Shown here in pieces: positions 3,639-30,378 of a DNA stretch of 32,000 bases (positions within the stretch are counted from its first letter, which is position 1; every line of letters starts with the position of its first letter). This DNA is from Caldimicrobium thiodismutans (lineage in GTDB: Bacteria; Desulfobacterota; Thermodesulfobacteria; Thermodesulfobacteriales; Thermodesulfobacteriaceae). Below the pieces are notes generated by a model, which saw nothing but the letters and a program-made list of their open reading frames with translations, was not told where the DNA came from and ran no database searches. Location: positions 1,410,001-1,442,000 of the forward strand of contig NZ_AP014945.1 in the NCBI RefSeq assembly GCF_001548275.1, in the 5' to 3' direction. Both the position numbers and the translations under genes were made by a program.

Positions 3639-3778
3639 CTTCTATAATAGTATAATTTTAAATTTTCTATTTTCCACCTCAGAAGTTTACTCATAAAAGG
3701 GCTATAAACTTCATCTTTTATTTTAATTTTTTCTTGATACAATATATATAGATTGATTGCGCTTAGAGGGAGGCTTTT

Positions 3779-4180
3779 ATGAATACTAATTTTAGTCCCA
3801 AGGAATTAACAGAAGCTGTAAGAGACATTTTTAGCGGGACCTTAGGGTATGAAATCAAGGAAAAAATTAGTTCTGAGATAATGGAGACCCTTGAGAAAAG
3901 ATTATCTGAACTTATGGAGAAAAAACTGAGATTAAATGAAGAGCGACTGAAGGTGTCAACTCTCCTTGAGAGAATTATTCGTGTGGAAGAGGAATTAAAG
4001 GCTTTAAGGGAGCTTGAAGAAAAGAGATTTGAAAGTTTGATGAGAGAGATGAATGCAAGATTTGAGGCTATGAATGTTAGATTTGAATCCCTTGAAAAGC
4101 GTATGAATTTTATGCAATGGTTGATAACAGCTGGCTTTGCCTTCTTAGGTGTCCTTTTAGCTCGACTCAAATTTTTATAA
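3779..4180 (+). CDS. Tail-anchored coiled-coil protein, short paralog (2 MNxRFEx heptads + C-terminal TM)
   Basis: SD GAGGGAGG lies 6-7 nt upstream of the ATG. Heptad-rich sequence ends in LEKRMNFMQWLITAGFAFLGVLLARLKFL. Homologous over its whole length to ORF 30512..31198. Confidence 0.75.
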   Translation: MNTNFSPKELTEAVRDIFSGTLGYEIKEKISSEIMETLEKRLSELMEKKLRLNEERLKVSTLLERIIRVEEELKALRELEEKRFESLMREMNARFEAMNVRFESLEKRMNFMQWLITAGFAFLGVLLARLKFL

Positions 4181-4298
4181 AGCTCTTCTATCGTTATAAT
4201 TCCTGAATTAAATCCCTTTCTGCATACACAATAATTCTTTACTTTAAAAAACTTATTTAAAATACAAGAGGCTTAAAAGGACTGAATGCAAACCCTTT

Positions 4299-4510
4299 TT
4301 TTGCATAGTTTCAGATCCTTACAAGAAAAAGGGTGGTAAAAGGTGAGAGAGGTGAAAATGTGAGAGGTGAGAGGAGGGGAAGCCCCTTGCGTGCCTGCCC
4401 CGTGTAGGGGTTCAAGATTTTGAACCCCTACATTGATGTAAAAAACACATAACAGGCAAACACATAGATTTTCCAAATGAGGACAAACACATAGGTTTGC
4501 CCCTACAAAA
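4299..4510. repeat. Copy A of a modular ~200-nt intergenic repeat element
   Basis: Shares these blocks with 11212..11401 in the same order and orientation: TTTTGCATA, GGTGGTAAAA(A)GGT, GAGAGGT(G/A)AGAGG purine tract, CTGCCCCGT, and the exact 19-mer ATAACAGGCAAACACATAG followed by GTTTG. Confidence 0.7.
4404..4431. other. Perfect hairpin (12-bp stem, 4-nt loop) inserted in repeat copy A
   Basis: GTAGGGGTTCAA-GATT-TTGAACCCCTAC read directly from the sequence. Absent from copy B. No U-tract follows on either strand. Confidence 0.9.
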
Positions 4511-4644
4511 TACAGGTTCATTTTCCTACAACCGAAGTAGGAGAAAATCTCCTTAAGTCTCAAAAGATATGAACTTATACAGTGCTTTGAAAAAGGAACT
4601 TTTGATTTAAAATTAATACAAAAAACTTTCCAGGGAGGAGAGAG

Positions 4645-6006
4645 ATGGAACATGTTTTTGATAAGCTTAAAGCAGAAGAAATAAAGGAGCTTGAGGGTCT
4701 TATTAAGAAATATCTTGATTTTTTATCCGAGATTAAGACAGAAAGAGAGTGTGTAGAGCAATTTAAAGAGGATTTGCTAAAAAAGGGGTTTCAAGAAAAA
4801 GCTCGGGATAAAGGCTTTTTTACCTATAGAAATAAGTTCCTTGCCTGCTGGAGAAGAGGTAAAAGACCACTTCAAGAAGGGTTAAAACTTATTATAAGTC
4901 ATATTGATACCCCGAGACTTGATTTAAAACTTCATCCCCTTTTTGAAGATCAGGACCTGGCATTTTTAAAGACCCACTATTATGGCGGAATAAAAAAATA
5001 TCATTGGGTAGCTATGCCTCTGGCTTTACATGGAGTGGTAGTAAAAAAGGATGGCTCAATAATTAATCTCGTGCTTGGAGAAAGGGAAGATGAGCCTTTG
5101 TTTACAATCTGTGATCTTCTGCCTCATCTGGGAAGAAAAAAACAAGAAGAAAAAAGGCTGGCTGAAGCTATCCCTGCTGAAAATTTAAATATACTCATAG
5201 GTGGAATTCCTATAGAAAAGAGCGGAAAGGGAAAAAAGGAGGAAAAAGAGCGTATTAAAAAAAGAATTTTAAAGCTTTTTGAGGAAAAATATGGTATAAG
5301 CGAGGAAGACTTCTTTTCAGCAGAGATTTTTGCTGTTCCTGCAGGAAGGGCAAGATTGGTTGGTTTGGATTCAGCCTTTGTGGGAGGCTACGGTCAGGAT
5401 GATCGCATCTGTGCCTTTACAAGTTTTCAAGCTCTGTTATCCATAGAAAAACCTTTATATACCACCCTTGTCCTCTTTATGGATAGGGAGGAAATAGGCT
5501 CAGAGGGAAATACCAGTGCCAAAAGTCGGATCTTTGAGAGCTTGGTCTATGAACTCATGAAAGCTGAAGAGTTATCCCCAACTCCAGATGTCTTTTTTGA
5601 AATTATGTCTAAAACTAAGGCCCTCTCAGCGGATGTTACCGCAGGGATTGATCCCAATTATCTTGAGGTTCACGACAAACTCAATGATGCCAAGCTTGGT
5701 TACGGGGTGGTTATAAGCCGTTACACTGGACATGGCGGTAAATATATGGCTAATGAAGCCCATGCTGAATATATAAGTTACCTGAGGTCCCTTTTTGAAA
5801 AGGAGGGGGTAGTCTACCAAGTGGCTTCTATGGGTAAAGTTGATGAAGGAGGAGGGGGAACAGTCTCCAAATATTTTGCCTCCTACGGGATGGATGTTGT
5901 TGATATAGGCCCACCACTTCTTTCCATGCACTCACCCTTTGAGATTGCCCACAAAGGAGACCTCTATATGACCTATCGGGCCTTTAAGGCCTTTTTGAAA
6001 GGTTAA
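4645..6006 (+). CDS. M18-family zinc aminopeptidase (aminopeptidase 1 / ApeA-like)
   Basis: SD GGGAGGAG upstream. KTERE near the N-terminus. ISHIDTPRLDLK, DREEIGSEG and SMHSPFE are typical M18 metal-ligand regions. 453 aa. Confidence 0.8.
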   Translation: MEHVFDKLKAEEIKELEGLIKKYLDFLSEIKTERECVEQFKEDLLKKGFQEKARDKGFFTYRNKFLACWRRGKRPLQEGLKLIISHIDTPRLDLKLHPLFEDQDLAFLKTHYYGGIKKYHWVAMPLALHGVVVKKDGSIINLVLGEREDEPLFTICDLLPHLGRKKQEEKRLAEAIPAENLNILIGGIPIEKSGKGKKEEKERIKKRILKLFEEKYGISEEDFFSAEIFAVPAGRARLVGLDSAFVGGYGQDDRICAFTSFQALLSIEKPLYTTLVLFMDREEIGSEGNTSAKSRIFESLVYELMKAEELSPTPDVFFEIMSKTKALSADVTAGIDPNYLEVHDKLNDAKLGYGVVISRYTGHGGKYMANEAHAEYISYLRSLFEKEGVVYQVASMGKVDEGGGGTVSKYFASYGMDVVDIGPPLLSMHSPFEIAHKGDLYMTYRAFKAFLKG

Positions 6007-6008
6007 AA

Positions 6009-6791
6009 ATGGCCCTTCAAAAGGGTGATCTCGTTATACTTCAGAAAGGCTCGAAGAAGTATCTTTTGATTATAAAAGAGGAAATCTTTCATACCCATGC
6101 TGGTTATCTTGACCTTTCTCAAATAGAGGGCAAGGAATATGGAGATTACATCCTTTCCTCTAAAGGAGTGCCCTTTTATATTTTAAAACCCACTATTTTT
6201 GATCTTCTGATGAAAATAAAAAGGCAGACCCAGATTATTTATCCCAAGGACATTGGTTATATCCTTCTTAAATTGGATATAGTTGAGGGGAAGACTGTCC
6301 TTGAATGCGGGTGTGGTTCAGGGGCTCTTACCACAGCTTTAGCCTATTTTGTTGGTAAAACCGGAAGGGTTATATCCTATGAAAAGAAAGAGTCCTTTGT
6401 TGAGATTGCAAGGACAAATCTCAAAAGATTTAATCTTGAGGAAAGAGTTGTATTTAAGCTGAAGGAGGTAGAAGAGGCCTTTGATGAAGAGGAAGAGGTG
6501 GATGCCCTTTTTCTGGATGTGCGGGAACCTGAAAGACTCCTCTTTCCAGCTTATAGGGCCCTTAAAGGAGGACATCCCCTTGGAATATTGGTTCCAACCA
6601 CAAATCAGGTAACTTCGGTCTTAAAGGGTCTTGAGGCTCTCCCTTTTGTAGACATAGAAGTTATTGAGATTTTCCTTAGACCATATAAATTAAATCCTGA
6701 GAGATTTCGGCCCGAGGATCTTATGGTTGCTCACACAGGCTATCTCATCTTTACTAAAAAGGTTAAGGTGAAAGATGGCAATGAAGATTGA
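6009..6791 (+). CDS. trmI: tRNA (adenine-N1)-methyltransferase TrmI/Gcd14 family (SAM-dependent)
   Basis: N-terminal beta domain followed by the SAM motif VLECGCGSGALTTALAYFVG and FLDVREP. 260 aa. Confidence 0.75.
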   Translation: MALQKGDLVILQKGSKKYLLIIKEEIFHTHAGYLDLSQIEGKEYGDYILSSKGVPFYILKPTIFDLLMKIKRQTQIIYPKDIGYILLKLDIVEGKTVLECGCGSGALTTALAYFVGKTGRVISYEKKESFVEIARTNLKRFNLEERVVFKLKEVEEAFDEEEEVDALFLDVREPERLLFPAYRALKGGHPLGILVPTTNQVTSVLKGLEALPFVDIEVIEIFLRPYKLNPERFRPEDLMVAHTGYLIFTKKVKVKDGNED

Positions 6792-7965
6792 GTATCTTGG
6801 AATAAAGTCTTTTCCGAGAGCCCTGGACAGAGGACTCAAGCAAAAAATCTTGAAGGCTTTTGAAATTTTAAATCTTCCTGCAAGGAATTTAACCCTTGTC
6901 TTCACAAATGATGTCGTAATAAGGGATTACAATCTTCAGTTTTTAAAGAGAGATTATCCAACGAATGTAATTTCTTTTAAAGGGGAAATGCCTGGTTATC
7001 TGGGGGATATTATAATCTCTGTTGAGAGGGCAAAGATTGAGGCCAAAACCTATGATCTCCCCCTGGAGGACTATCTTTTAATCCTTGCTCTGCACGGCCT
7101 TCTCCATCTTTTGGACTATGATCATGAGAAGGGTCTTTATAGCCCTTGGCTTATGCTTAAAAATGAAATAAAATTAGCTAAATATTTGTGTGAAAAAAAG
7201 GAAGAGATAGTTAGATTTTTGATGAGGAGGGAATATATGCCAGCCAAACTTGCCGTAAATGTAGATCATGTAGCCACCATTAGAGAAGCAAGAAAGACCT
7301 ATTATCCTGATCCTGTGCATGCAGCAGTTCTTGCTGAGCTTGGAGGGGCTGATGGAATAGTTGTGCACCTTAGGCTTGACAGAAGACATATTAAGGAAAG
7401 AGATGTTAGAATCATAAAAGAAATTATAAAAACCAAGCTTATTCTTGAGATGGCCATAGATAAAGATCTTGTGAAATTTGCAAAGGAGGTTAAACCCTAT
7501 CAGGTGACTCTTGTTCCAGAGAGAGTGGAAGAGGTTACCACTGAAGGAGGGATGGAACTTGAGGGTAGGGTAGAGGAGGTCAAAAAAGTAGTAAAAGAAC
7601 TCAATAAAGCAGGCATCAAGGTCAGTCTTTTTTTAAATCCCGATGAAAAAGCCTTAGAGCTTGGCCAAAAAACAGGGGCCCAAATTGTTGAGCTTCATAC
7701 AGGAATGTATGCTGAGGCTGAAGATGAAGAAAAGAGAATGGTTGAGTTTGAAAGACTTGAACGAGCTGCTCATCTTGCAAAAGACTTAGGATTTATAGTG
7801 CATGCTGGACACGGACTCAATTACGAAAATATAGGGCCAGTTGCAGCTATTCCTGAGATTGAAGAGTTTAGTATCGGCCATAGCATCATTGGAAGAGCTA
7901 TTTTTGTGGGTATGAAAGAGGCTGTTAAAGAAATGAAGAACCTAATTCTTAGGGCAAGAGGTTAA
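6775..7965 (+). CDS. ybeY-pdxJ: Single ORF fusing YbeY (rRNA maturation RNase, aa 1-~150) to PdxJ (pyridoxine 5'-phosphate synthase, aa 155-396)
   Basis: YbeY metal motif HGLLHLLDYDHE. PdxJ motifs LAVNVDHVATIREAR, VHLRLDRRHI, VELHTG and HAGHGLNY. No in-frame stop between them. An internal SD AGGAGGG (7225-7231) precedes ATG 7237. Confidence 0.8.
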   Translation: MAMKIEYLGIKSFPRALDRGLKQKILKAFEILNLPARNLTLVFTNDVVIRDYNLQFLKRDYPTNVISFKGEMPGYLGDIIISVERAKIEAKTYDLPLEDYLLILALHGLLHLLDYDHEKGLYSPWLMLKNEIKLAKYLCEKKEEIVRFLMRREYMPAKLAVNVDHVATIREARKTYYPDPVHAAVLAELGGADGIVVHLRLDRRHIKERDVRIIKEIIKTKLILEMAIDKDLVKFAKEVKPYQVTLVPERVEEVTTEGGMELEGRVEEVKKVVKELNKAGIKVSLFLNPDEKALELGQKTGAQIVELHTGMYAEAEDEEKRMVEFERLERAAHLAKDLGFIVHAGHGLNYENIGPVAAIPEIEEFSIGHSIIGRAIFVGMKEAVKEMKNLILRARG

Positions 7966-15786: not shown

Positions 15787-17976
15787 ATGTTCCTTGAGCT
15801 AAAGGGAGCCTCAACTCACAATCTTAAAGGTTTTGACTTAAAAGTTCCCTTGAACCAGCTTGTTATAATTACTGGTCCTTCAGGTTCAGGTAAAAGCTCC
15901 CTTGCCTTTGATACCATTGCTAAATTAGCAGAGTTACGCCTTAAACTACTTCAAACCTATGCAATCCCCTTAGGTGTAGAGGAAAATATAGAGGGTCAAT
16001 TAAGGGGCCCTATCCCTCCTGTTGTTTCCCTTGCTCAGGGAGTGAGAAACTGGTATCCCTATAAAAATGTTTCTGAAATTCTTGGGCTCTCTCGGTTTAT
16101 AAAAGCTCTTTTTGTGGAAAAAGGTAAAATCAGGTGCCCCATTTGCAGTGCTTTAAATGAGATTCACTCTTTACAACAGGTTATAAAGTGGTTTGAAGGC
16201 CTTTCTGAGGGAAAGAGATTTTATTTAATGTTACCTCTGTCTGAGTCCTCTCCCAAGGCTCTGAATTATCTTCTTTCTCAGGGTTTTACTCGTTATTTTT
16301 TTGATGGAAGGGAGATTGATCTCTCAGAAGAGGAGGCTCCAGCCAATTTTAAAGAGGTTCTTTTGCTCTTTGACAGGATGATTAAGGAGGAAAAAACCCT
16401 TTCAAGACTCTTGGAGAACCTTAGAGTTGCTAAGAGCATAAATCGCGGAAGAATAGTATTTGAGTTCTTAGATGATAGAGAAAGAGTTAACTTCAACCTT
16501 GGGGGTAGTTGTTTTTCCTGCGGAAACTCCTTGAATCAGAGCTTACAAAAATGTTCCCTCTGTAAGGGAGTTGGATTTAAAGAGAAAATTCCCTGCGCAA
16601 ATTGTGGAGGCCTTAAATATGAAAGAGCTTACTTAGAAAGTGAGCTCTACTCCACACCTTTATATAAAATCCTTTCCATGAGCCTTGGGGAGTTTAAAAA
16701 CTTTCTTTTAAATAACCTTAAGTCTGAAGAGAAAACTATCTGGGAAAATTATTTAAAAGTCCTTGAAAAGGCAGGCTTTTTAAAGGCAGATTATTTAAGG
16801 CTTTCCACTCCAGTTTTTGAACTTTCTCTGGGGGAGAGAAAGCTTTTGGAGATACTCTTGCTTTTTTCAGCAGACCTTCAAGGAGTTCTCTATATACTGG
16901 ATGAACCAACCCTTGGTCTTGATGAGACGCATAGGGGAAGACTCCTTGCATTAATTAAAGAGATCCTTGCTCAGGGAAATTCCTTTTTGCTGGTTGAACA
17001 CGATCTTGATTTTATTCGGAAAGCAGATTTTGTTATAGAGCTTGGACCGGAGGCTGGGGAAAAGGGAGGTTATCTCCTCAGGGCCTTACCTGTTGAAGAT
17101 TATTTAAAAGACAAAGAAAGCCTTCTGTATCCTTACTTTGAAAAATCAATTAGCTTTCCCAAAAAGGAATTCAAACCAGAGGACTTTCTTGAAATTTATA
17201 AAGAGGAAAAGATGATTAAGATCCTTTTGAGGGGGATAAATCTTTTTTACGGTGCAACGGGTTCAGAGAAGGATTTTGAATTAAGGAATTTTGTGAGAGA
17301 GCTTTCTGCACTTGGCTACAAAGTTATGGAAGGGGAAGGGATTTTTGATAAAAGGGGAGATAATTTCCTTGTGGATTATCTGGGAATCTGGGGGCTCTGG
17401 AGAGAGATTTTATTGGCTCTTCCCTCTGCCAAAGCTAAGGGGTTGACTAAGAGGCATTTTAGTTTTCATACCCAGGAAGGCCTTTGCTCAACCTGTAAAG
17501 GCAAGGGATATAAAACCTTAATGCTTGAGACTTATACCCTTAAAAGTCTCTGTGAAGAATGCCTTGGGAAGAGATTGAATTATGAGGTTTTAAATCTTAC
17601 TTATCGGGGTTTTAAAATTAGTGAGATCCTTGATTTTACCTTTGAAGAGGCTCTTGAACTTTTCACTCAGATATTTGAGATAAAAGAGATTCTTGGTTGG
17701 TTAAAGGAACTTAAACTTTCTTATCTTAAGCTTTCTCAGAGCCTTCCAGAACTATCCGGAGGTGAAAGATTAAGGATTGAAATTCTCCGTAACCTCAGGC
17801 AAAGAAGTAAACTCGATTTCTTGATTCTTTTTTATCCCTTTCAGGGCTTATCAATCTTAGACCTTGAGGAATTGCACCGGTTTTTTAGAAAGTTAAATTC
17901 CCATGGACTAACTATTTTAATCCGTGAAACTCACCCTTTAAGCAAAGCTTTTTCTGATAATATTATAGAAAAATGA
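15787..17976 (+). CDS. UvrA-like ABC ATPase paralog, shortened (729 aa) with one degenerate nucleotide site
   Basis: UvrA-type N-terminus THNLKGFDLKVPLNQLVIITGPSGSGKSSLAFDTI. Cys clusters (CPIC; CFSCG..CSLC..CANCGG; CSTCKGKG..CEEC). LSLGER + LYILDEPTLGLD, then YGATGSEKDF instead of a Walker A, then LSGGERLRIEI. Confidence 0.8.
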   Translation: MFLELKGASTHNLKGFDLKVPLNQLVIITGPSGSGKSSLAFDTIAKLAELRLKLLQTYAIPLGVEENIEGQLRGPIPPVVSLAQGVRNWYPYKNVSEILGLSRFIKALFVEKGKIRCPICSALNEIHSLQQVIKWFEGLSEGKRFYLMLPLSESSPKALNYLLSQGFTRYFFDGREIDLSEEEAPANFKEVLLLFDRMIKEEKTLSRLLENLRVAKSINRGRIVFEFLDDRERVNFNLGGSCFSCGNSLNQSLQKCSLCKGVGFKEKIPCANCGGLKYERAYLESELYSTPLYKILSMSLGEFKNFLLNNLKSEEKTIWENYLKVLEKAGFLKADYLRLSTPVFELSLGERKLLEILLLFSADLQGVLYILDEPTLGLDETHRGRLLALIKEILAQGNSFLLVEHDLDFIRKADFVIELGPEAGEKGGYLLRALPVEDYLKDKESLLYPYFEKSISFPKKEFKPEDFLEIYKEEKMIKILLRGINLFYGATGSEKDFELRNFVRELSALGYKVMEGEGIFDKRGDNFLVDYLGIWGLWREILLALPSAKAKGLTKRHFSFHTQEGLCSTCKGKGYKTLMLETYTLKSLCEECLGKRLNYEVLNLTYRGFKISEILDFTFEEALELFTQIFEIKEILGWLKELKLSYLKLSQSLPELSGGERLRIEILRNLRQRSKLDFLILFYPFQGLSILDLEELHRFFRKLNSHGLTILIRETHPLSKAFSDNIIEK

Positions 17977-18087
17977 ATTATTAAAAAATATAGTATAATT
18001 TTTATCTTTAGGTTTAAAAATCAATAAAAAAAACTTGAAGAAAGCTCCTAACTTGCCATATTTTAGCTTAATTGCCCTAAGATGGTC

Positions 18088-18116
18088 TTGACAATCAAAA
18101 GGGTTTTATATAAGAT
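18088..18116 (+). promoter_or_regulatory. Sigma-70-type promoter of the sulfur-relay operon
   Basis: TTGACA (18088-93), 17-nt spacer, TAAGAT (18111-16). It lies inside the longer 18082 ORF, which supports the ATG at 18145 as the true start. Confidence 0.45.
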
Positions 18117-18144
18117 AAAACAAAAATTTTCCAGGAGGGGGGAT

Positions 18145-19311
18145 ATGTCTCTAAAAGATACCTGGAAAGAGTTTTATGGATCAGTTTTTAGATCTAATTA
18201 TTCTCCTATTACTGGTGGTGTTTTACTGGCTTTATTAGTAATTTTACTTGAGATGTGGTATCGTCCCTGGGGAATTGTGGGGGGGTTGAGAAATTGGGGG
18301 GAGTGGGTTTTATATGGAGTTGGTTTTTTAGATGAGGCTCCGCCTCATCCTCTTTGGTTTTCTTCTTCGGTTCTTGATCTTGGGCTTATTCTTGGGGCTT
18401 TTCTTTCAGCAACCCTTGCTCAGGAATTTGGAATCCGTATTCCACCTAAGCTTGAGATCATTAAGGGAGTTGTTGCTGGAATTTTAATGGGAATTGGTTC
18501 TGCCCTTGCTCAGGGGTGTAACATTGGTGGTTTTTATATGGCCATTGCCAATCTTTCTGCTGGCGGTGTGGCTATGATGCTTGGGCTTATGGTGGGGGTC
18601 TTTATTGGGGTCAAATACCTTCTTTGGGAGCTTGAACACCTTTCCTCTCAGGGGGGGGTGGAAATAAATACCAGAAAGTTGAATCCTATATTGGGAATAA
18701 TTGCTTTAATTGTGTTAGTCCTTGGAACTTATGGTTATTTTAATAGTGAAAGAGAAAATGGGGCCCTTCTTGGGGGAGCCTTTTTACTTACAGCTGGGAT
18801 TGGCTTTGTTATGCATCGTTCCAGATTTTGTATTGTAAATGCCTTTAGAGAACCTTTTCTTTCTGGTGAAGCTACTATGGCAAGAGGAGTAGTTTTGAGT
18901 ATATTGTTAGCGACCTTAGGAATTTTATTTATTAAAATGGCTGGTATTCGTGAACCCATGGTGTATGTTACTCCCACATTTATTTGGGGCTCTCTTATTG
19001 GTGGAGTAATCTTTGGTGCAGCTATGGTAGTTGCAGGGGGATGTGGTTCTGGATCTCTCTGGAGGGTAGGTGAGGGCCAGGTAAAGTTGATGATCGTGGT
19101 TGTCTTTTTTGCCTTAACCAATGCTATTTTTAGATATTATTTAGATAATGTCTGGGAGGTATGGGATAAAGGCTTACTTGGTTCTGCAGTTTATCTTCCT
19201 GATATCTTTGGGTATGGAGGTGCTTTTATTATTCTTGCTTTAGTAATATTTTTATGGTATCTTTTTGTAGATTGGAACGAAAAGACCGAAAAATTTGTAA
19301 TTGGGTTATAA
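18145..19311 (+). CDS. YeeE/YedE-family sulfur-compound (thiosulfate-type) transporter-like membrane protein
   Basis: Start set at Met22 (SD AGGAGGGGGG, 18133-42). Polytopic. Paired conserved motifs AQGCNIGGFY and AGGCGSGSLWR, plus RSRFCIVNAF. Confidence 0.85.
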   Translation: MSLKDTWKEFYGSVFRSNYSPITGGVLLALLVILLEMWYRPWGIVGGLRNWGEWVLYGVGFLDEAPPHPLWFSSSVLDLGLILGAFLSATLAQEFGIRIPPKLEIIKGVVAGILMGIGSALAQGCNIGGFYMAIANLSAGGVAMMLGLMVGVFIGVKYLLWELEHLSSQGGVEINTRKLNPILGIIALIVLVLGTYGYFNSERENGALLGGAFLLTAGIGFVMHRSRFCIVNAFREPFLSGEATMARGVVLSILLATLGILFIKMAGIREPMVYVTPTFIWGSLIGGVIFGAAMVVAGGCGSGSLWRVGEGQVKLMIVVVFFALTNAIFRYYLDNVWEVWDKGLLGSAVYLPDIFGYGGAFIILALVIFLWYLFVDWNEKTEKFVIGL

Positions 19312-19337
19312 AAAAACTTCATTAGGAGGGGAGAGCC

Positions 19338-19583
19338 ATGGTTGATTTAAGCAGTATTAAAGCTGATGAAGTGCTGGATTGTAAGGGTTTGTCTTGTCCA
19401 ATGCCTATGCTTAAAACCAAAAAGGCCTTGCAGAAGCTAAGCTCTGGCCAGATTTTGGAGGTTTTAGGCACTGATCCTGGCAGTAAAAATGATATTCCCA
19501 GTATGTGTAAAAAAGAAGGACATGAATTTTTAGGAATGATTGATGAGTCCGGATATACAAGATATTTTATCAGGAAAAAATAG
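19338..19583 (+). CDS. tusA: TusA/SirA-family sulfur carrier protein
   Basis: DCKGLSCPMPMLKTKKAL (Cys-Pro-x-Pro active-site motif). 81 aa. SD AGGAGGGGAG. Confidence 0.85.
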   Translation: MVDLSSIKADEVLDCKGLSCPMPMLKTKKALQKLSSGQILEVLGTDPGSKNDIPSMCKKEGHEFLGMIDESGYTRYFIRKK

Positions 19584-19628
19584 TTTATAAAGAATTGGTA
19601 GATATTATTACAAAAAAGGAGGTAAGTT

Positions 19629-19958
19629 ATGTCAAAGGATCCAGATAAATTAGGAATTTTTGTGACCTCACCTATTCATATTAATGAATTAGTAAAAATA
19701 GTTGAAGCTGCCTATAGAAAGGGCAAAAAGGTTAAAATCTTTTTTACTTTTAAATCAACTCATTTAGTAGTGCACCCTGATTTTCAAAAACTCAGGAATA
19801 GGATCCCCGAAGAGGATCTGGCTATTTGTGTAGCAGCCTTTGCCTGTGAAGGTTATGAGCCAGAGTATCACAATATGGGGCTTACAGAAAAACAGATGAG
19901 AACTCAGGCCTTTCACGGCGAGCTTATTGAGGAAGTAGGTAAATATTTTGTATTGTAA
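19629..19958 (+). CDS. DsrE/DsrF-fold small protein (DsrE-like)
   Basis: LGIFVTS...KGKKVKIFFTFKS...DLAICVAAFACEGY matches the beta-alpha-beta core and the Cys-containing C..a..(R/E)G region of DsrE-family proteins. SD AAGGAGGTAAGTT. Confidence 0.6.
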   Translation: MSKDPDKLGIFVTSPIHINELVKIVEAAYRKGKKVKIFFTFKSTHLVVHPDFQKLRNRIPEEDLAICVAAFACEGYEPEYHNMGLTEKQMRTQAFHGELIEEVGKYFVL

Positions 19959-19978
19959 TCTTAGAAAGGAGGTAAGTT

Positions 19979-20335
19979 ATGAGTTATAAAGTATGTTTTT
20001 TAATTGCCAATAGATCTTTTATTTCTGATGGAATGAGATCAGCCCTTGGGCTTGCGGTGGAGAATATGTATTCTTATACTTACATCTTTTATCAAAAGAT
20101 GCCAGGTAAAAGCGAATATCTGGAAGAAAATCTGGCCTGGATTAGAGATATGGAAGGTGAATTCTATGCAGTTACTGAAACTATGGATGAGGAGACCAAA
20201 AATTTTAATCTTCAAGAGTGGGAGCTTGCTGAAGCTACCCTTGATGATGTGGTAGAAAAGATTCTGGAATGTGATTTTATAGTAGGATATGGGCTTCCAG
20301 CTCAAAAAGTTCAGGCACCACCTCAGTGTGCTTAA
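19979..20335 (+). CDS. Conserved hypothetical small protein, possibly DsrF/H-like fold
   Basis: Preceded by the same 16-nt AAGGAGGTAAGTTATG as the previous gene. KVCFLIANRSF...ALGLAVE resembles the start of a DsrE/F-fold. Function unknown. Confidence 0.6.
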   Translation: MSYKVCFLIANRSFISDGMRSALGLAVENMYSYTYIFYQKMPGKSEYLEENLAWIRDMEGEFYAVTETMDEETKNFNLQEWELAEATLDDVVEKILECDFIVGYGLPAQKVQAPPQCA

Positions 20336-20357
20336 TTTGTGATAAAGGAGGTTGTAT

Positions 20358-20549
20358 ATGAAGATACTTAATGTTTATAGACATAAAGTTAGCGCAGAAA
20401 ATGAAGATATTAAAAAAATAGTCGCTAAATTTAAAGAAAAAGGGCATGAAGTAATTGAGTTTAATCTCTTTGAGGCAAAGAGTGATGCAGACTATGATAA
20501 ACTCATAGATCTTATTTGGGAAGCGGATAAAACAATCTCCTGGTGGTAA
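20358..20549 (+). CDS. Small acidic hypothetical protein (63 aa), last gene of the sulfur-relay operon
   Basis: ATG 20358 lies 6 nt after SD AAGGAGG, so the track's TTG at 20352 is less likely. Followed by a strong terminator. Confidence 0.6.
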   Translation: MKILNVYRHKVSAENEDIKKIVAKFKEKGHEVIEFNLFEAKSDADYDKLIDLIWEADKTISWW

Positions 20550-20557
20550 AATTAAAT

Positions 20558-20581
20558 AAAAGGGGGCTTTGCCCCCTTTTT
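20558..20581 (+). terminator. Rho-independent terminator
   Basis: AAAAGGGGGC-TTT-GCCCCCTTTTT. GC-rich stem plus a T-run, 9 nt after the stop codon. Confidence 0.8.
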
Positions 20582-20816: not shown

Positions 20817-20845
20817 TTGACTTTGATTTAATAGGTCTTTATAAT
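20817..20845 (+). promoter_or_regulatory. Near-consensus sigma-70 promoter for the cytochrome c operon
   Basis: TTGACT (20817-22), 17-nt spacer, TATAAT (20840-45), about 40 nt upstream of ATG 20885. Confidence 0.55.
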
Positions 20846-20884: not shown

Positions 20885-21256
20885 ATGTTGAAAAAGGTTT
20901 TAGTTACCATTGGTGTTTTAGCTCTGGGGGTTAATTTAGCTTATGGTCAGGGGGATGTAGAAAAAGGTAAGAAGCTATTTAATGATCCAAAGCTTGGAAC
21001 CAGTGGTAAATCATGTAATTCCTGCCATTCAGGTGGACAGGGTCTTGAGGGATCCGCATCTAAAAAAGAATTTAAGCTTGGGGGCAAAACTCAAAAAAGC
21101 CTTGAAGAGGCTATTAATTTCTGCATTGAAATGGCTCTTAAGGGAAAACCTCTTGATCCCAAATCTAAGGAGATGCAAGATATGGTAGCTTATATTAAAT
21201 CTCTTTCTGGGAAAACCCCTGCAGCTCCTAAGAAGAAAAAAGTTGAAGGCTGTTAA
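20885..21256 (+). CDS. Secreted monoheme class-I c-type cytochrome with Lys/Pro-rich tail ending in Cys
   Basis: Signal peptide MLKKVLVTIGVLALGVNLAYG. Single CNSCH heme motif. C-terminus SGKTPAAPKKKKVEGC-stop. Confidence 0.8.
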   Translation: MLKKVLVTIGVLALGVNLAYGQGDVEKGKKLFNDPKLGTSGKSCNSCHSGGQGLEGSASKKEFKLGGKTQKSLEEAINFCIEMALKGKPLDPKSKEMQDMVAYIKSLSGKTPAAPKKKKVEGC

Positions 21257-21392: not shown

Positions 21393-21491
21393 ATGTTTAA
21401 ATATTTTATGAAGTTTAAACCTGGTTGGTTTATCTTACATCTTATTGCTATTTTGTTAACGATTTTATTAGGCTATTATATAAGATTTTAA
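21393..21491 (+). CDS. Mini membrane peptide (32 aa), paralog 2
   Basis: MFKYFMKFKPGWFILHLIAILLTILLGYYIRF. SD AGAGG lies 5 nt upstream. Starts 1 nt after the stop of paralog 1. Shares the WFI-H-L-IL-T-L-G--R pattern with it. Confidence 0.45.
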   Translation: MFKYFMKFKPGWFILHLIAILLTILLGYYIRF

Positions 21492-21493
21492 TT

Positions 21494-21943
21494 ATGCTCA
21501 AAGATAAGACACGCTTGATCCTTTATTTAATCCTTTTTTTTCTTTCTCTTGATGGATTTATTCTTCATTATAGAGTTCATCCTTTTCTTGTTGCTGATGA
21601 ACTCAATCCTCAAATTGTTTATTTTAAATTTTCTTTTTTTATGGCTAATTTTTTTTCACTATTTGATTTAATTATAGTAAATATCTTGTTTTTAAGTCGA
21701 AAAACATTTATACTTGCATATGTTTTAAATGGGCTTATATCCTTCTATGGAATTATTCTCATGGGACATTATGCAATTTCCAAGTTAGTGACTGGAGGTT
21801 TCCCATTTTCTTTTGAAAATCTTTTTATTCAATCTGTTTTTCCTCACCAACTTATTTGTTTTTCAGATTTTTTTACAGGATATTTACTTTTTGAACAAAT
21901 AAAAAAAACAAACAAGGAGGTGGCTTATGAAAAAAGAGGTTAA
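21494..21943 (+). CDS. 4-TM membrane protein of unknown function with His residues at helix ends
   Basis: ATG at 21494 (Met24 of the 21425 TTG ORF). Four hydrophobic segments. HYRVHP, GHYAIS and FPHQL sit at helix boundaries. Confidence 0.6.
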   Translation: MLKDKTRLILYLILFFLSLDGFILHYRVHPFLVADELNPQIVYFKFSFFMANFFSLFDLIIVNILFLSRKTFILAYVLNGLISFYGIILMGHYAISKLVTGGFPFSFENLFIQSVFPHQLICFSDFFTGYLLFEQIKKTNKEVAYEKRG

Positions 21944-22406: not shown

Positions 22407-22964
22407 ATGAAAACTTTATTGGAGTGTAAATGGGCCCTCCAGATTTTAAAATATTTAGCGGAGGGCCCAAAAAGGCCCTCAGAGCTCTTAAGAATTATTT
22501 CTGGCATCTCCGAAAGGATTTTATTTGACAGATTAAGAGCTCTTGAAAGAGAAGGAATTATTTATAAAAAATCTTCTTCAGGATATCCTTTAAGAACTTT
22601 ATATTATCTTGATCATGGAGCAGGGTTAGATGAATTAATTTCATTAATTTCTAAAGTATCGGAAAATACTCTTTTTCTTAAAGTTCTTTCTTCAAAATGG
22701 ATGATTCCTATCCTAAAAGCCTTAAAGGACCCGGCCCCACCAAAGGAGCTATTAATAAGGTTTCGAAATTTATCTCAGAAAGTTTTATATGAAAATCTTA
22801 AGGTTATGGTAGAAATAGGACTTATTGAAAGGAAAGTAATTCCCTCAATTCCTGTTAAGGTGGTTTATCAGTTGAGTAGAGAGGGGGAGAAGATTCTCCC
22901 CGCCCTTTTAAAAGCTAAAAGTATTATTCTTTCCACAGGGAAAAGACGAAGTCCTGGTCCTTAA
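22407..22964 (+). CDS. Transcriptional regulator with two tandem HxlR-type winged-helix domains
   Basis: Domain 1: CKWALQILKYLAEGPKRPSELLRIISGISERILFDRLRALEREGII. Domain 2: SSKWMIPILKAL..PKELLIRFRNLSQKVLYENLKVMVEIGLIERKV...VVYQLSREG. Confidence 0.7.
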   Translation: MKTLLECKWALQILKYLAEGPKRPSELLRIISGISERILFDRLRALEREGIIYKKSSSGYPLRTLYYLDHGAGLDELISLISKVSENTLFLKVLSSKWMIPILKALKDPAPPKELLIRFRNLSQKVLYENLKVMVEIGLIERKVIPSIPVKVVYQLSREGEKILPALLKAKSIILSTGKRRSPGP

Positions 22965-26818: not shown

Positions 26819-29233
26819 TTATACATCAAGCTCTCTATATTCCAAGGCATGTTCATAGATAAATTCTTTACGGGGCTCCACATTTTCCCCCATAAGCACA
26901 GAGAACATCTCATCTGCCTTTTCTGCATCCTGAATAGTTACCCTTTTAAGGATTCTCTTTTGGGGATCCATGGTGGTTTCCCAGAGTTGCTGAGAGTTCA
27001 TTTCCCCAAGGCCTTTATATCTCTGAATGTAAAGCCCCTTTCTTCCTTCTTCCCGTAAAAAGGTAAGAATTTCCGTTAAGTGGAGGAGAAAGTCAGAAAA
27101 TACTTTTTGGGTCTCCTTTAATTTAATTTCAAGGTCAAGCCCTGCGTAATCTCTCAGAGTATCAAATATTCTTGAGGCCTCTCTATAGTCTTTCTCTAAA
27201 ATTAATTCAGGCCCAATTTTACAAAAGCTATAGGTGTCCCCCTGGGAATAAAGGTAAAATTCAAAGTATTTGGGATTATAGGTGCTACTTTTGACCCTGG
27301 AAATTTTGAAGTTTAAGGCCTTGGCAGATTGAGAAAGTTTTTCAACTACTTCTTCAGACTCAAAATCTGTCAGGGCCTTTATGTTTTCTTTGAGAAGCAG
27401 TAAAACCACCTTGGGGGGATAATTTTTCTTGGTAAGATTGAGGAGATTTTTTTCCAGATGGGACAGATTTTGAAAAAATTTGATAGGCTCTTTGATTTCA
27501 CTGATAGGACTTCCCTCCTTTTTGACTAAAACCTTCAAATCTCCCAGAATTCTTTTAAAAATATATCTATCCAGTTCTTCGTCATTTTTGATATAGGTCT
27601 CTTTTTTTCCTTCGGCTACTCTGTAAAGAGGAGGTTGAGCAATGTAAAGCCAGCCCCTTTCAATAATTTCAGGCATCTGGCGATAGAAAAAAGTCAAAAG
27701 CAGGGTGCGAATATGAGCTCCATCTACATCGGCATCGGTCATAAGGATGATCTTATGATATTTACAGCGATCTGCATTAAAGCTATCAGGGCCAATGCCT
27801 GTTCCAAGGCTTGCAATGAGGCTTTTTATTTCCTCTGAGGCAAGCATCTTTTCAAAATTGGCCTTTTCCACATTAAGGATTTTTCCTCGCAGAGGCAGTA
27901 TAGCCTGAAATTTTCTATCTCTTGCCTGTTTGGCCGAGCCTCCAGCTGAGTCTCCTTCAACTATAAAAAGTTCTCTGTTTTCTGGGGTCCTTTCAGTGCA
28001 GTCAGCCAGTTTACCAGCTGTAAGAAATTCTTCAATCTCACTCTTTTTTCTAACAAGTTCTTTGGCTTTACGGGAGGCCTCTCTGGCCTTAGCAGAAGTA
28101 ATAACCTTTTGAAGAATCTTTTTGGCCTCTCCTGGATTTTCTTCAAAAAATTTAAGGAGTCCTTCATAAACGAGGGATTCAACAAGGGGTTTGACCTCGC
28201 TATTTCCTAATTTCATTTTGGTCTGTCCTTCAAACTGAGGCTCTGGCACTTTCAGGGAGATAACTGCAGTTAGGCCCTCACGAACATCTTCTCCCTCAAC
28301 TTTGATTTTGAATTGCTTAGGGAGTTTTTCTGAGTCAAGATATCTATTTACAGCTTTAGTAAGGGCAGCTCTAAAACCAACCACATGGGTTCCACCTTCT
28401 TTGGTATGAATGTTATTTACATAGCTGTAAATGGTTTCGGTATATCCTGAGTTATATTGAAGGGCAACCTCAACAACAATATTGTCCTTTTCCCCGGAGA
28501 TGGTAATAACTTTATTGTGAAGGGCTTCTTTTTTTTGATTTAGTGCCTTGACAAGTTCTGCAATCCCCCCTTTATAGTGAAACTTTTCAGCATACCCAAT
28601 CCGTTCATCCATGAGGTAAAATTTTACCTGGGGATTTAAATAAGCAAGTTCTTTTATCCTTTTGGAGACAATCTCTAAGTCAAATTCAAGATTACTTCCA
28701 AAGATCTCCGGATCTGGTTTAAAGCAAACCTTGGTTCCGTGCTTTGAGGTCTGACCAATGGTTGTAACTACTCCGTCAGGGACACCTCTTTTGTAACTCT
28801 GAAAGTAAATTTTTCCATCTCTATAGACCTCGGCTTTTAACCATTCGGAAAGGGCATTAACAACAGAAACCCCTACTCCGTGAAGCCCACCTGAAACTTT
28901 GTAGGCCCCGTGGTCAAACTTAGCCCCAGCATGAAGCCTTGTCATAACTATTTCTAAGGCTGAGATACCCTCTTCAGGATGGATATCAACGGGGATCCCT
29001 CTTCCATTGTCCTCTACACAGGCAGACCCATCTTTGTTAAGGCTTACCTTTATTTCTGAAGCATATCCAGCTAAGGCTTCATCAACAGCATTATCAAGCA
29101 CTTCCCAGAGAAGGTGGTGAAACCCATAAATGTCCGTTGAACCTATATACATAGCAGGCCTGACTCTAACTCCTTCAAGGCCTGTTAAAACCTTTATACT
29201 TTCAGCTTCATATCTTTCCATGAAAGACTTCAC
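26819..29233 (-). CDS. gyrB: DNA gyrase subunit B
   Basis: GHKL ATPase motifs (VLDNAVDEA, GLHGVGVSVVNALS). Toprim EGDSAGGSAKQARDR, PLRGKILNVEKA, DADVDGAHIRTLLLTFF. 804 aa. Confidence 0.95.
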   Translation of the reverse strand: MKSFMERYEAESIKVLTGLEGVRVRPAMYIGSTDIYGFHHLLWEVLDNAVDEALAGYASEIKVSLNKDGSACVEDNGRGIPVDIHPEEGISALEIVMTRLHAGAKFDHGAYKVSGGLHGVGVSVVNALSEWLKAEVYRDGKIYFQSYKRGVPDGVVTTIGQTSKHGTKVCFKPDPEIFGSNLEFDLEIVSKRIKELAYLNPQVKFYLMDERIGYAEKFHYKGGIAELVKALNQKKEALHNKVITISGEKDNIVVEVALQYNSGYTETIYSYVNNIHTKEGGTHVVGFRAALTKAVNRYLDSEKLPKQFKIKVEGEDVREGLTAVISLKVPEPQFEGQTKMKLGNSEVKPLVESLVYEGLLKFFEENPGEAKKILQKVITSAKAREASRKAKELVRKKSEIEEFLTAGKLADCTERTPENRELFIVEGDSAGGSAKQARDRKFQAILPLRGKILNVEKANFEKMLASEEIKSLIASLGTGIGPDSFNADRCKYHKIILMTDADVDGAHIRTLLLTFFYRQMPEIIERGWLYIAQPPLYRVAEGKKETYIKNDEELDRYIFKRILGDLKVLVKKEGSPISEIKEPIKFFQNLSHLEKNLLNLTKKNYPPKVVLLLLKENIKALTDFESEEVVEKLSQSAKALNFKISRVKSSTYNPKYFEFYLYSQGDTYSFCKIGPELILEKDYREASRIFDTLRDYAGLDLEIKLKETQKVFSDFLLHLTEILTFLREEGRKGLYIQRYKGLGEMNSQQLWETTMDPQKRILKRVTIQDAEKADEMFSVLMGENVEPRKEFIYEHALEYRELDV

Positions 29234-29256
29234 CCCTTGAAGATTTTTGTTCAGGT

Positions 29257-30378
29257 CTAAATTACCATAGGCATAAGAAGATAAAGGAAACCCTCATCTC
29301 GAAAGCCTGTTATCAGGGCAGGGGATCTCTCATCATTAATTTTTACCTCAACTTCTTCGGACTTCATATTCTCCAAGGCTGAGATAAGATAGACAGCATT
29401 GAAACTTATAGTTAAAGGAGAACCTTCATATTCTGCACTAAGCCTAATCCTTGCTCTGGAGGTATCTCCCTCAGGGGAGGAGATGGTGATTTCGGAAGAA
29501 GTAAGACTTAAGCGGATAGGTTTGAATTTTTCAGAGATTACATTGGAGGCTCTTTTGCAGGCATCCAGAAAGAGTTTTCTATCAATTTTGAGTTTATTTT
29601 GAAAATCCTGGGGTATAACCGCCCTATAATCTGGAAAGGAGCCTTCAATGGTTCTGGTAAAGAAAAAGCCATCGCTAAAAAAGAGCACAACATAGTTATT
29701 AACAAAGCCAAATTTGACTATAAGCTCCTCCTCGGAAAGATCAGCCATCATATCAGCCCCTTTTTTGCTGATGATGAATCCTTCTTTAAGCGAGGAGCTA
29801 TCAAGCCCGAGAACCTCTCTGTCCAAAAGGGCAAGTCTGTGTCCGTCTGAGGCAACAGCCCGAAGAACTCCTTTTTCTCGCATAGGTTCAAGATAGATCC
29901 CTCCCAGGACAAATCTGGCCTCATCCTTTGAGGCTGAAAAGATGGTGCTTCTAATAAGTTCAGTTAGGACCTTTCCAGGAATTTCAAGGAGATTTTCTTC
30001 ATAAAATTCAGGGAGACTTGGAAATTCTTCACTATCCATGACTGAAAGCTCGTAGAGCTCCTTTTCTTCTTCATCTCTTATGATGAGACGAGAGTCCTCT
30101 TTAAGGAGATAGACCTCCTCTTCAGGAAAGTCTTTAATTATTTCAAGGAATCTTCGGCAGGGGACGCAAAAGGAGAGCCTTTCTCCTTCAATATCTGCAG
30201 GCACTCTTCCTCTGAAACCCTGTTCAAGGTCAGTTGTAGTGATATAGAGGGTTTTTTCTTCTGGTTCAAAGTTGAGAAGAGCCATTGAGAGAACAGCCAT
30301 GGAGGCCTTTTTATCAGCTACTCCATCTGCCCTTTTTAGAAGCTTTTCAAGGTGCGATTTGTCAAGTTTAGCCTGCAT
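29257..30378 (-). CDS. dnaN: DNA polymerase III beta sliding clamp
   Basis: 373 aa, three-domain length. Typical N-terminus (...L...L......VA.K....VL) and C-terminal LLMPM. Lies immediately upstream of gyrB. Confidence 0.85.
   Translation of the reverse strand: MQAKLDKSHLEKLLKRADGVADKKASMAVLSMALLNFEPEEKTLYITTTDLEQGFRGRVPADIEGERLSFCVPCRRFLEIIKDFPEEEVYLLKEDSRLIIRDEEEKELYELSVMDSEEFPSLPEFYEENLLEIPGKVLTELIRSTIFSASKDEARFVLGGIYLEPMREKGVLRAVASDGHRLALLDREVLGLDSSSLKEGFIISKKGADMMADLSEEELIVKFGFVNNYVVLFFSDGFFFTRTIEGSFPDYRAVIPQDFQNKLKIDRKLFLDACKRASNVISEKFKPIRLSLTSSEITISSPEGDTSRARIRLSAEYEGSPLTISFNAVYLISALENMKSEEVEVKINDERSPALITGFRDEGFLYLLMPMVI

Follow-up and report, generated by a model that had tools for sequence, protein, structure and literature searches.

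We studied a 32,000-nucleotide stretch of the genome of the hot-spring bacterium Caldimicrobium thiodismutans (contig NZ_AP014945.1, positions 1,410,001 to 1,442,000 of the forward strand; the whole stretch is called the window here) that carries, at 18088-20581 on the plus strand, five co-directional and tightly packed open reading frames (ORFs) of 388, 81, 109, 118 and 63 amino acids (aa), named G1 to G5. Very probably these genes encode the sulfur relay known as YTD or YedE-TusA-DsrEFH type II, including the mechanism proposed below: a yedE-related gene of the Sulf_transp family, tusA, a dsrE-like gene and a pair of conserved hypothetical protein (CHP) genes are found in synteny. The operon is real, correctly identified and well conserved, yet it is already known and characterised in orthologues, since the YTD cluster was named years earlier (ref. 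20 of PMC13293266; at least 15 papers discuss it, among them PMC12998232, PMC9676032 and PMC9751629), the trio of small proteins of Candidatus (Ca.) Electronema aureum GS was characterised under the name 'DsrEFH type II' by Plum-Jensen et al. (ISME J, May 2026; PMC13293266), and in Table S5 of the latter paper the entry for Caldimicrobium thiodismutans TF1 reads 'YeeE-TusA-DsrEFH type II'. An original prediction, made from the letters of the window alone, had recognised the gene set as YTD, in agreement with our results, and had described it as not characterised biochemically, a statement that is now out of date. The window is one more example of a known cluster and poses no new question; its only new increment is a pair of co-varying cysteines (see below).

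The same prediction had proposed that G3, G4 and G5 assemble into a reduced complex of the DsrEFH/TusBCD kind, supplied by TusA, and this is what has been shown for the orthologous Electronema proteins. The E. aureum DsrEFH type II subunits co-purified as a 1:1:1 complex, a trimer of about 33 kDa with some hexamer; persulfidated TusA loads Cys67 of DsrE, the C67S exchange abolishes this loading, and in vitro the complex hands its sulfur on to DsrC in one direction only (PMC13293266).

Conservation and gene order

When species-representative genomes were scanned with the G3 family, 191 relatives were obtained, and the best 80 of them were used for the locus comparisons. In about 76 of these 80 genome loci, and also in most of 80 metagenome loci, tusA, dsrE, dsrF and dsrH were neighbours in this order. 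In the relatives tusA immediately precedes the E-F-H genes, and the dsrH-type gene was the last of the cluster in 78/80 loci. The yedE-like gene was co-directional with the others in Thermodesulfobacteria and many Desulfobacterota, while Ca. Electronema and some Desulfobulbaceae have it in divergent orientation.

The window's closest relatives were Caldimicrobium metagenome-assembled genomes, with 86-94% identity. Four loci of cable bacteria (Ca. Electronema; L062, L072, L078 and L080) presented the same gene order behind tusA, with identities of 55-56% for E, 44-45% for F and 38-44% for H; these values come from the genus-level loci, and the biochemistry cited above from the proteins of Ca. 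Electronema aureum GS. Cys67 of G3 is residue 67 in the Electronema orthologue as well.

The three small proteins

At E <= 1 the window proteins G3, G4 and G5 matched no Pfam or NCBIfam model, including those for DsrE/DsrH and TusB/C/D. Of the profile matches to Sulf_transp, TusA and DsrE/F/H that the original prediction had suggested as a check, those for G1 and G2 were obtained (see below) and those for the three small proteins were not. The DsrE-like core with a cysteine pair that had been read into G3 was recovered by other means. This protein has 61 close homologues, the nearest in Caldimicrobium (86-99% identity), followed by Thermosulfurimonas, Thermodesulfatator and Desulfobulbaceae, and both Cys67 and Cys73 were invariant in 27 homologues. 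Its AlphaFold2 model was confident (predicted local distance difference test score, pLDDT, of 93), and the top four Foldseek matches in the PDB were all of the DsrE/DsrF/DsrH fold: 2qs7, 3pnx, 2pd2 and chain C of 2hy5, the DsrEFH of Allochromatium vinosum, with probabilities of 0.96-1.0 and template modelling scores of about 0.6.

Sequence comparisons of the G3 family gave fainter signals. Pfam DsrE was matched weakly, below threshold, by 10 of 27 family members, and a weak, non-significant hhalign alignment placed the ICVAA motif of G3 (Cys67) on the ICVAA of Escherichia coli TusD (Cys78). When PDB sequences were searched with a profile of the family, no DsrE, TusD, DsrEFH or TusBCD was recovered. 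None of the hhalign comparisons of the G3, G4 and G5 families with E. coli TusD, TusC and TusB, or of G3 with G4, was significant, and only the pairing of G3 with TusD was structurally sensible.

G4 has more than 700 homologues. Its AlphaFold2 model reached a pLDDT of 91.5, with a less confident tail past residue 105 (67-78), and its best Foldseek matches were YchN (1jx7, 1.1e-4), 3pnx and 2qs7, all of the DsrE/F fold. G3 and G4 are therefore both predicted, at high model confidence, to have DsrE/F-type folds. Members of the G5 family are 57-63 aa long throughout and end in an invariant WW. No sequence signal was found for this family against TusB (hhalign) or Pfam DsrH, and when the G4 and G5 families were scanned against Pfam, one member after another, no match to DsrE or DsrH was obtained. 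G5 is a putative dsrH type II by orthology to the Electronema protein that co-purifies as DsrH type II (PMC13293266).

The YedE-like protein and TusA

G1 belongs to the Sulf_transp family (Pfam PF04143, 4.6e-51) and retains three cysteine motifs, RFC, GGCGSG and GCNIGG. Its best NCBIfam match was the YedE/FdhT model (selen_YedE_FdhT), with which it is colinear, at 132.8 bits against a cut-off of 350; two TsuA models gave 95.6 bits (cut-off 400) and 80.3 bits (cut-off 645). G1 is also related to the Spirochaeta thermophila YeeE structure 6leo (5e-19) with its two halves swapped: the N-terminal half of G1 corresponds to YeeE residues 218-310 and the C-terminal half to residues 11-117. The original prediction had called G1 a YeeE, which holds for the family and the motifs and fails for the order of the halves, reversed relative to the crystallised YeeE. 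Because G1 is colinear with YedE/FdhT, scores far below the TsuA cut-offs and has a half order opposite to that of YeeE, 'yedE-related' is, on sequence grounds, the better label.

G2 was correctly foreseen as a TusA with a CPxP cysteine. It matched Pfam TusA (PF01206) with 94 bits, above the cut-off of 28.6 (4.9e-27), and contains the CPMP motif. Its score on the TsuB/YeeD model was 17.1 bits (cut-off 147.5) and on YedF 55.2 bits (cut-off 79), and it scored higher on the TusA equivalog than on the YedF models. The motifs GCNIGG, GGCGSG, CPMP and CVAAFAC, listed in the original prediction, were all present in the translations.

Operon layout and putative regulatory signals

The five ORFs were present on the plus strand with the lengths that had been predicted, each behind a strong GGAGG-type Shine-Dalgarno (SD) sequence, and they are separated by gaps of 20-45 nucleotides (nt; Table 1). 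The 388-aa form of G1, which begins at the ATG behind AGGAGGGGGG, and the 63-aa form of G5, which begins at an ATG 6 nt past AAGGAGG, were chosen because of SD spacing and the N-termini of homologues; relatives of G5 likewise begin with MKIL. On the same two grounds we rejected a longer, 409-aa G1 starting at 18082, which would also swallow the promoter, and a TTG start for G5.

Table 1 Position of the genes and putative expression signals of the operon in the window
Feature	Position	Strand	Remarks
Sigma-70-type promoter candidate, TTGACA-17-TAAGAT	18088..18116	+	10/12 consensus matches; putative function
G1, yedE-related Sulf_transp membrane protein, putative sulfur-compound importer	18145..19311	+	388 aa
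G2, tusA sulfur carrier	19338..19583	+	81 aa; CPMP cysteine
G3, dsrE type II ('dsrE-like' of YTD)	19629..19958	+	109 aa; active-site Cys67 and invariant Cys73
G4, dsrF type II (YTD chp1)	19979..20335	+	118 aa; Pro-rich C-terminal tail with Cys117
G5, putative dsrH type II (YTD chp2)	20358..20549	+	63 aa; invariant C-terminal WW
Intrinsic terminator hairpin	20558..20580		10-bp stem (6 G-C pairs), then T-run

The promoter sequence named in the original prediction, TTGACA-17-TAAGAT, was present, although on a consensus scan alone it did not rise above chance (13 sites found, 10.2 expected). Its -35 element TTGAC was invariant and at the same place in nine Caldimicrobium-clade loci, where flanking conservation was just 53%, and the -10 position was A/T-rich and TA..AT-like in the same loci. 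The conserved TTGAC box is a reasonable phylogenetic footprint of what would be the operon promoter. The predicted strong terminator was also found: the hairpin downstream of G5 has a folding energy of -16 kcal/mol (z = -3.3), and 0/200 shuffled sequences were equally stable.

An identical 16-nt initiation region had been noticed ahead of G3 and G4. The duplicate is exact, since AAGGAGGTAAGTTATG occurs exactly twice, ahead of each of these two genes (expected 0.01), but it is peculiar to this genome: the identity between the two initiation regions was conserved in no relative. On this ground we rejected a role of AAGGAGGTAAGTTATG as a stoichiometry device and regard the duplication as two strong ribosome-binding sites that agree by local coincidence, with no further evident meaning.

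Two subtypes and the extra cysteines

All the F proteins (DsrF type II) recovered from the 80 genome loci, including those of Electronema, have a tail that is rich in proline, with a cysteine 1-4 residues short of the C-terminus. More distant G4 homologues have no such tail, and one of them belongs to a YTD-type cluster that is complete (L082). Metagenomes scanned with this subtype as the seed gave 80 further loci. We compared 80 clusters of subtype A, the window included (L001-L080), with 73 clusters of subtype B (L082-L162). DsrE-Cys67 was present in every cluster of both subtypes (80/80 and 73/73, 153/153 overall), whereas DsrE-Cys73 was present in 80/80 clusters of subtype A and 0/73 of subtype B, where K, N, Q or R stands instead, and the DsrF tail cysteine was distributed in the same way (80/80 and 0/73). 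Cys73 and the tail cysteine co-occur perfectly, though across two clades only, so that one evolutionary event could explain their co-occurrence.

Subtype A, to which the window and the cable bacteria belong, may use a relay of three cysteines and not the single published Cys67; we propose this tentatively and consider it rather less likely than not. The tail cysteine of DsrF could play a part similar to that of DsrC's C-terminal arm, by carrying or resolving the persulfide between DsrE and DsrC. Such a role, if true, would also account for the residual sulfur transfer of the Electronema C67S complex. In that complex DsrF remained persulfidated and sulfur kept passing to DsrC, an activity that the authors ascribed to non-specific cysteines (PMC13293266). 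The searchable text of the published work holds no discussion of Cys73 or of the DsrF tail cysteine, and the persulfidation of DsrF is regarded there as non-specific. The cysteine pair would split the family into two mechanistic subtypes and is the only new lead of this analysis.

Proposed relay and alternative explanations

In the proposed mechanism the YedE-like protein would import sulfur in a reduced or zero-valent form through the membrane, as its family membership suggests, and the CPxP cysteine of TusA would bind this sulfur as a persulfide. TusA would then hand it to Cys67 of DsrE type II within a 1:1:1 E-F-H complex, a step demonstrated in vitro for Electronema and expected here by orthology. 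From the complex the sulfur would pass to DsrC and on to DsrAB for oxidation to sulfite; the literature describes the transfer in vitro, and the direction in vivo is presumed. In a Caldimicrobium-type organism the relay would work in the oxidative branch when S0, thiosulfate or sulfite is disproportionated. More generally, the cluster is the proposed link by which organisms whose DsrAB is of the reductive type would be able to oxidise sulfur or carry out disproportionation's oxidative half, a case that has been argued and tested in the literature.

Several points weigh against this mechanism. Thiosulfate persulfidated none of the Electronema TusA and DsrEFH type II proteins (PMC13293266). No dsrC, dsrAB or other dsr genes were found among the annotated ORFs of the 32-kb window, so that the DsrC/DsrAB acceptor is assumed from relatives. 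The physiological role of the cluster is disputed between oxidation and disproportionation. The original prediction had looked to a link with disproportionation as a test of the relay; that link is contested in the literature, and among cultured disproportionators only 25/63 carry the cluster (PMC13293266).

Three other explanations were weighed against the sulfur relay, and all score poorly: they fall short of the curated cut-offs of their models and also fit the family's distribution poorly. Assimilatory uptake of thiosulfate for cysteine synthesis, of the YeeE/YeeD (TsuA/TsuB) type and with the three small proteins as accessories, would agree with the membership of G1 in the Pfam family of TsuA, with its three conserved cysteine motifs and with the TusA/YeeD-like character of G2. 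We think it improbable: G1 and G2 remain far below the TsuA and TsuB cut-offs, G1 is colinear with YedE, the thiosulfate result with the Electronema proteins cited above speaks equally against this pathway, and the tight linkage of E, F and H is not a feature of TsuAB loci. We also weighed a selenium-handling YedE/YedF module, since selen_YedE_FdhT is the best NCBIfam match of G1 and G2 also matches YedF models. Both matches fall far below the curated cut-offs, G2 passes the Pfam TusA threshold and prefers the TusA equivalog, and no selD or selenoprotein formate dehydrogenase was seen among the annotated ORFs of the window, which leaves this explanation with a minimal probability.

The small proteins themselves bring up a divergent TusA-TusBCD relay for the 2-thiouridine modification of tRNA, with which they would share the fold family and the logic of three subunits, and whose TusD Cys78 motif is identical to the ICVAA of G3. 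This is very unlikely, given that no TusB/C/D or DsrH model of NCBIfam or Pfam was matched, that the hhalign comparisons with TusB and TusC were non-significant and that the window has neither tusE nor mnmA next to the cluster. In its distribution the family follows sulfur metabolisers that bear dsrAB: DsrEFH type II genes occur in 985 genomes, 73.9% of which carry reductive dsrAB (PMC13293266).

Neighbouring genes

The other genes of the window are housekeeping genes. Within Caldimicrobium the operon keeps synteny with its upstream neighbours, which encode PolX, a GGDEF protein and a short UvrA-like ABC protein. The UvrA-like gene, directly upstream of the operon (15787-17976, +), encodes 729 aa and is shorter than canonical UvrA; its product diverges fast across Caldimicrobium loci, with 41-74% identity as compared with 78-94% for the sulfur genes.

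Just past the terminator, at 20885-21256 (+), lies a gene whose 123-aa product is a monohaem cytochrome c (CNSCH) and contains a cytochrome-c domain of the SoxA/TsdA type (7.9e-12). It is preceded by a near-consensus promoter, TTGACT-17-TATAAT (20817-20845), and lies where the GC of the window is lowest (0.31). It was rejected as a sixth member of the operon, having its own promoter beyond the terminator and being absent beside the cluster in every related locus; because of this absence and the low GC, it looks like a strain-specific insertion. Further downstream, a 185-aa protein with two HxlR-type helix-turn-helix stretches (22407-22964, +) converges on a cytochrome P460 gene (22924-23400, -) with a 41-nt overlap, and P460 is conserved near the cluster in one related locus (L003).

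A single 396-aa ORF at 6775-7965 (+) joins a YbeY endoribonuclease domain (residues 35-119) to a complete PdxJ domain (158-391), and is either an unusual fusion or the result of a missed stop or frameshift. The gyrB gene lies beside dnaN at 26819-30378 (-); therefore the window adjoins the replication-origin gene set, with the sulfur operon within about 10 kb of it. ORFs of 126-172 aa with no Pfam match were found at 3763-4180 (both strands), 4273-4653 (-) and 21425-21943 (+). The 172-aa one resembles a multi-pass membrane protein, and a homologue was found near the cluster only in locus L011. Rfam and tRNA scans of the window gave no matches.

Comparison with known systems

The YeeE/YeeD system (TsuA/TsuB; 6LEO, 8J4C) shares with the window the Sulf_transp fold family, the three cysteine motifs and an adjoining TusA-like partner; it differs in the swapped order of the homologous halves and in the TsuA/TsuB scores, which are far below cut-off here. 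Canonical DsrEFH (A. vinosum, 2HY5) and E. coli TusBCD have in common with the window the fold family, as predicted for G3 and G4, TusA as donor (presumed here) and an active cysteine placed where strand passes into helix in the E/D subunit, with ICVAA common to TusD. They show no significant sequence similarity to the window proteins, which are smaller, especially H (63 aa as compared with 95-102 aa), and canonical DsrEFH accompanies dsrAB of the oxidative kind, DsrEFH type II that of the reductive kind.

No difference of substance was found from the YTD cluster, and the genus is known for disproportionation of S0, thiosulfate and sulfite. Some YTD clusters contain a third CHP; here the terminator comes after the second. 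The likeness with the DsrEFH type II of Electronema lies in the gene order tusA-E-F-H, the summed subunit mass of about 33 kDa, Cys67 of DsrE, the DsrE/F-type folds predicted for E and F, the failure of canonical sequence models to match, and the presence of both DsrE-Cys73 and the DsrF tail cysteine. The differences are these: the yedE-like gene is divergent in Electronema and co-directional here, apparently in the same operon; the Caldimicrobium-clade DsrF has an 8-residue insertion (MDEETKNF) and ends in PPQCA, as compared with PPPACAE in Electronema; and the C-terminus of DsrH reads SWW here and CWW in Electronema.

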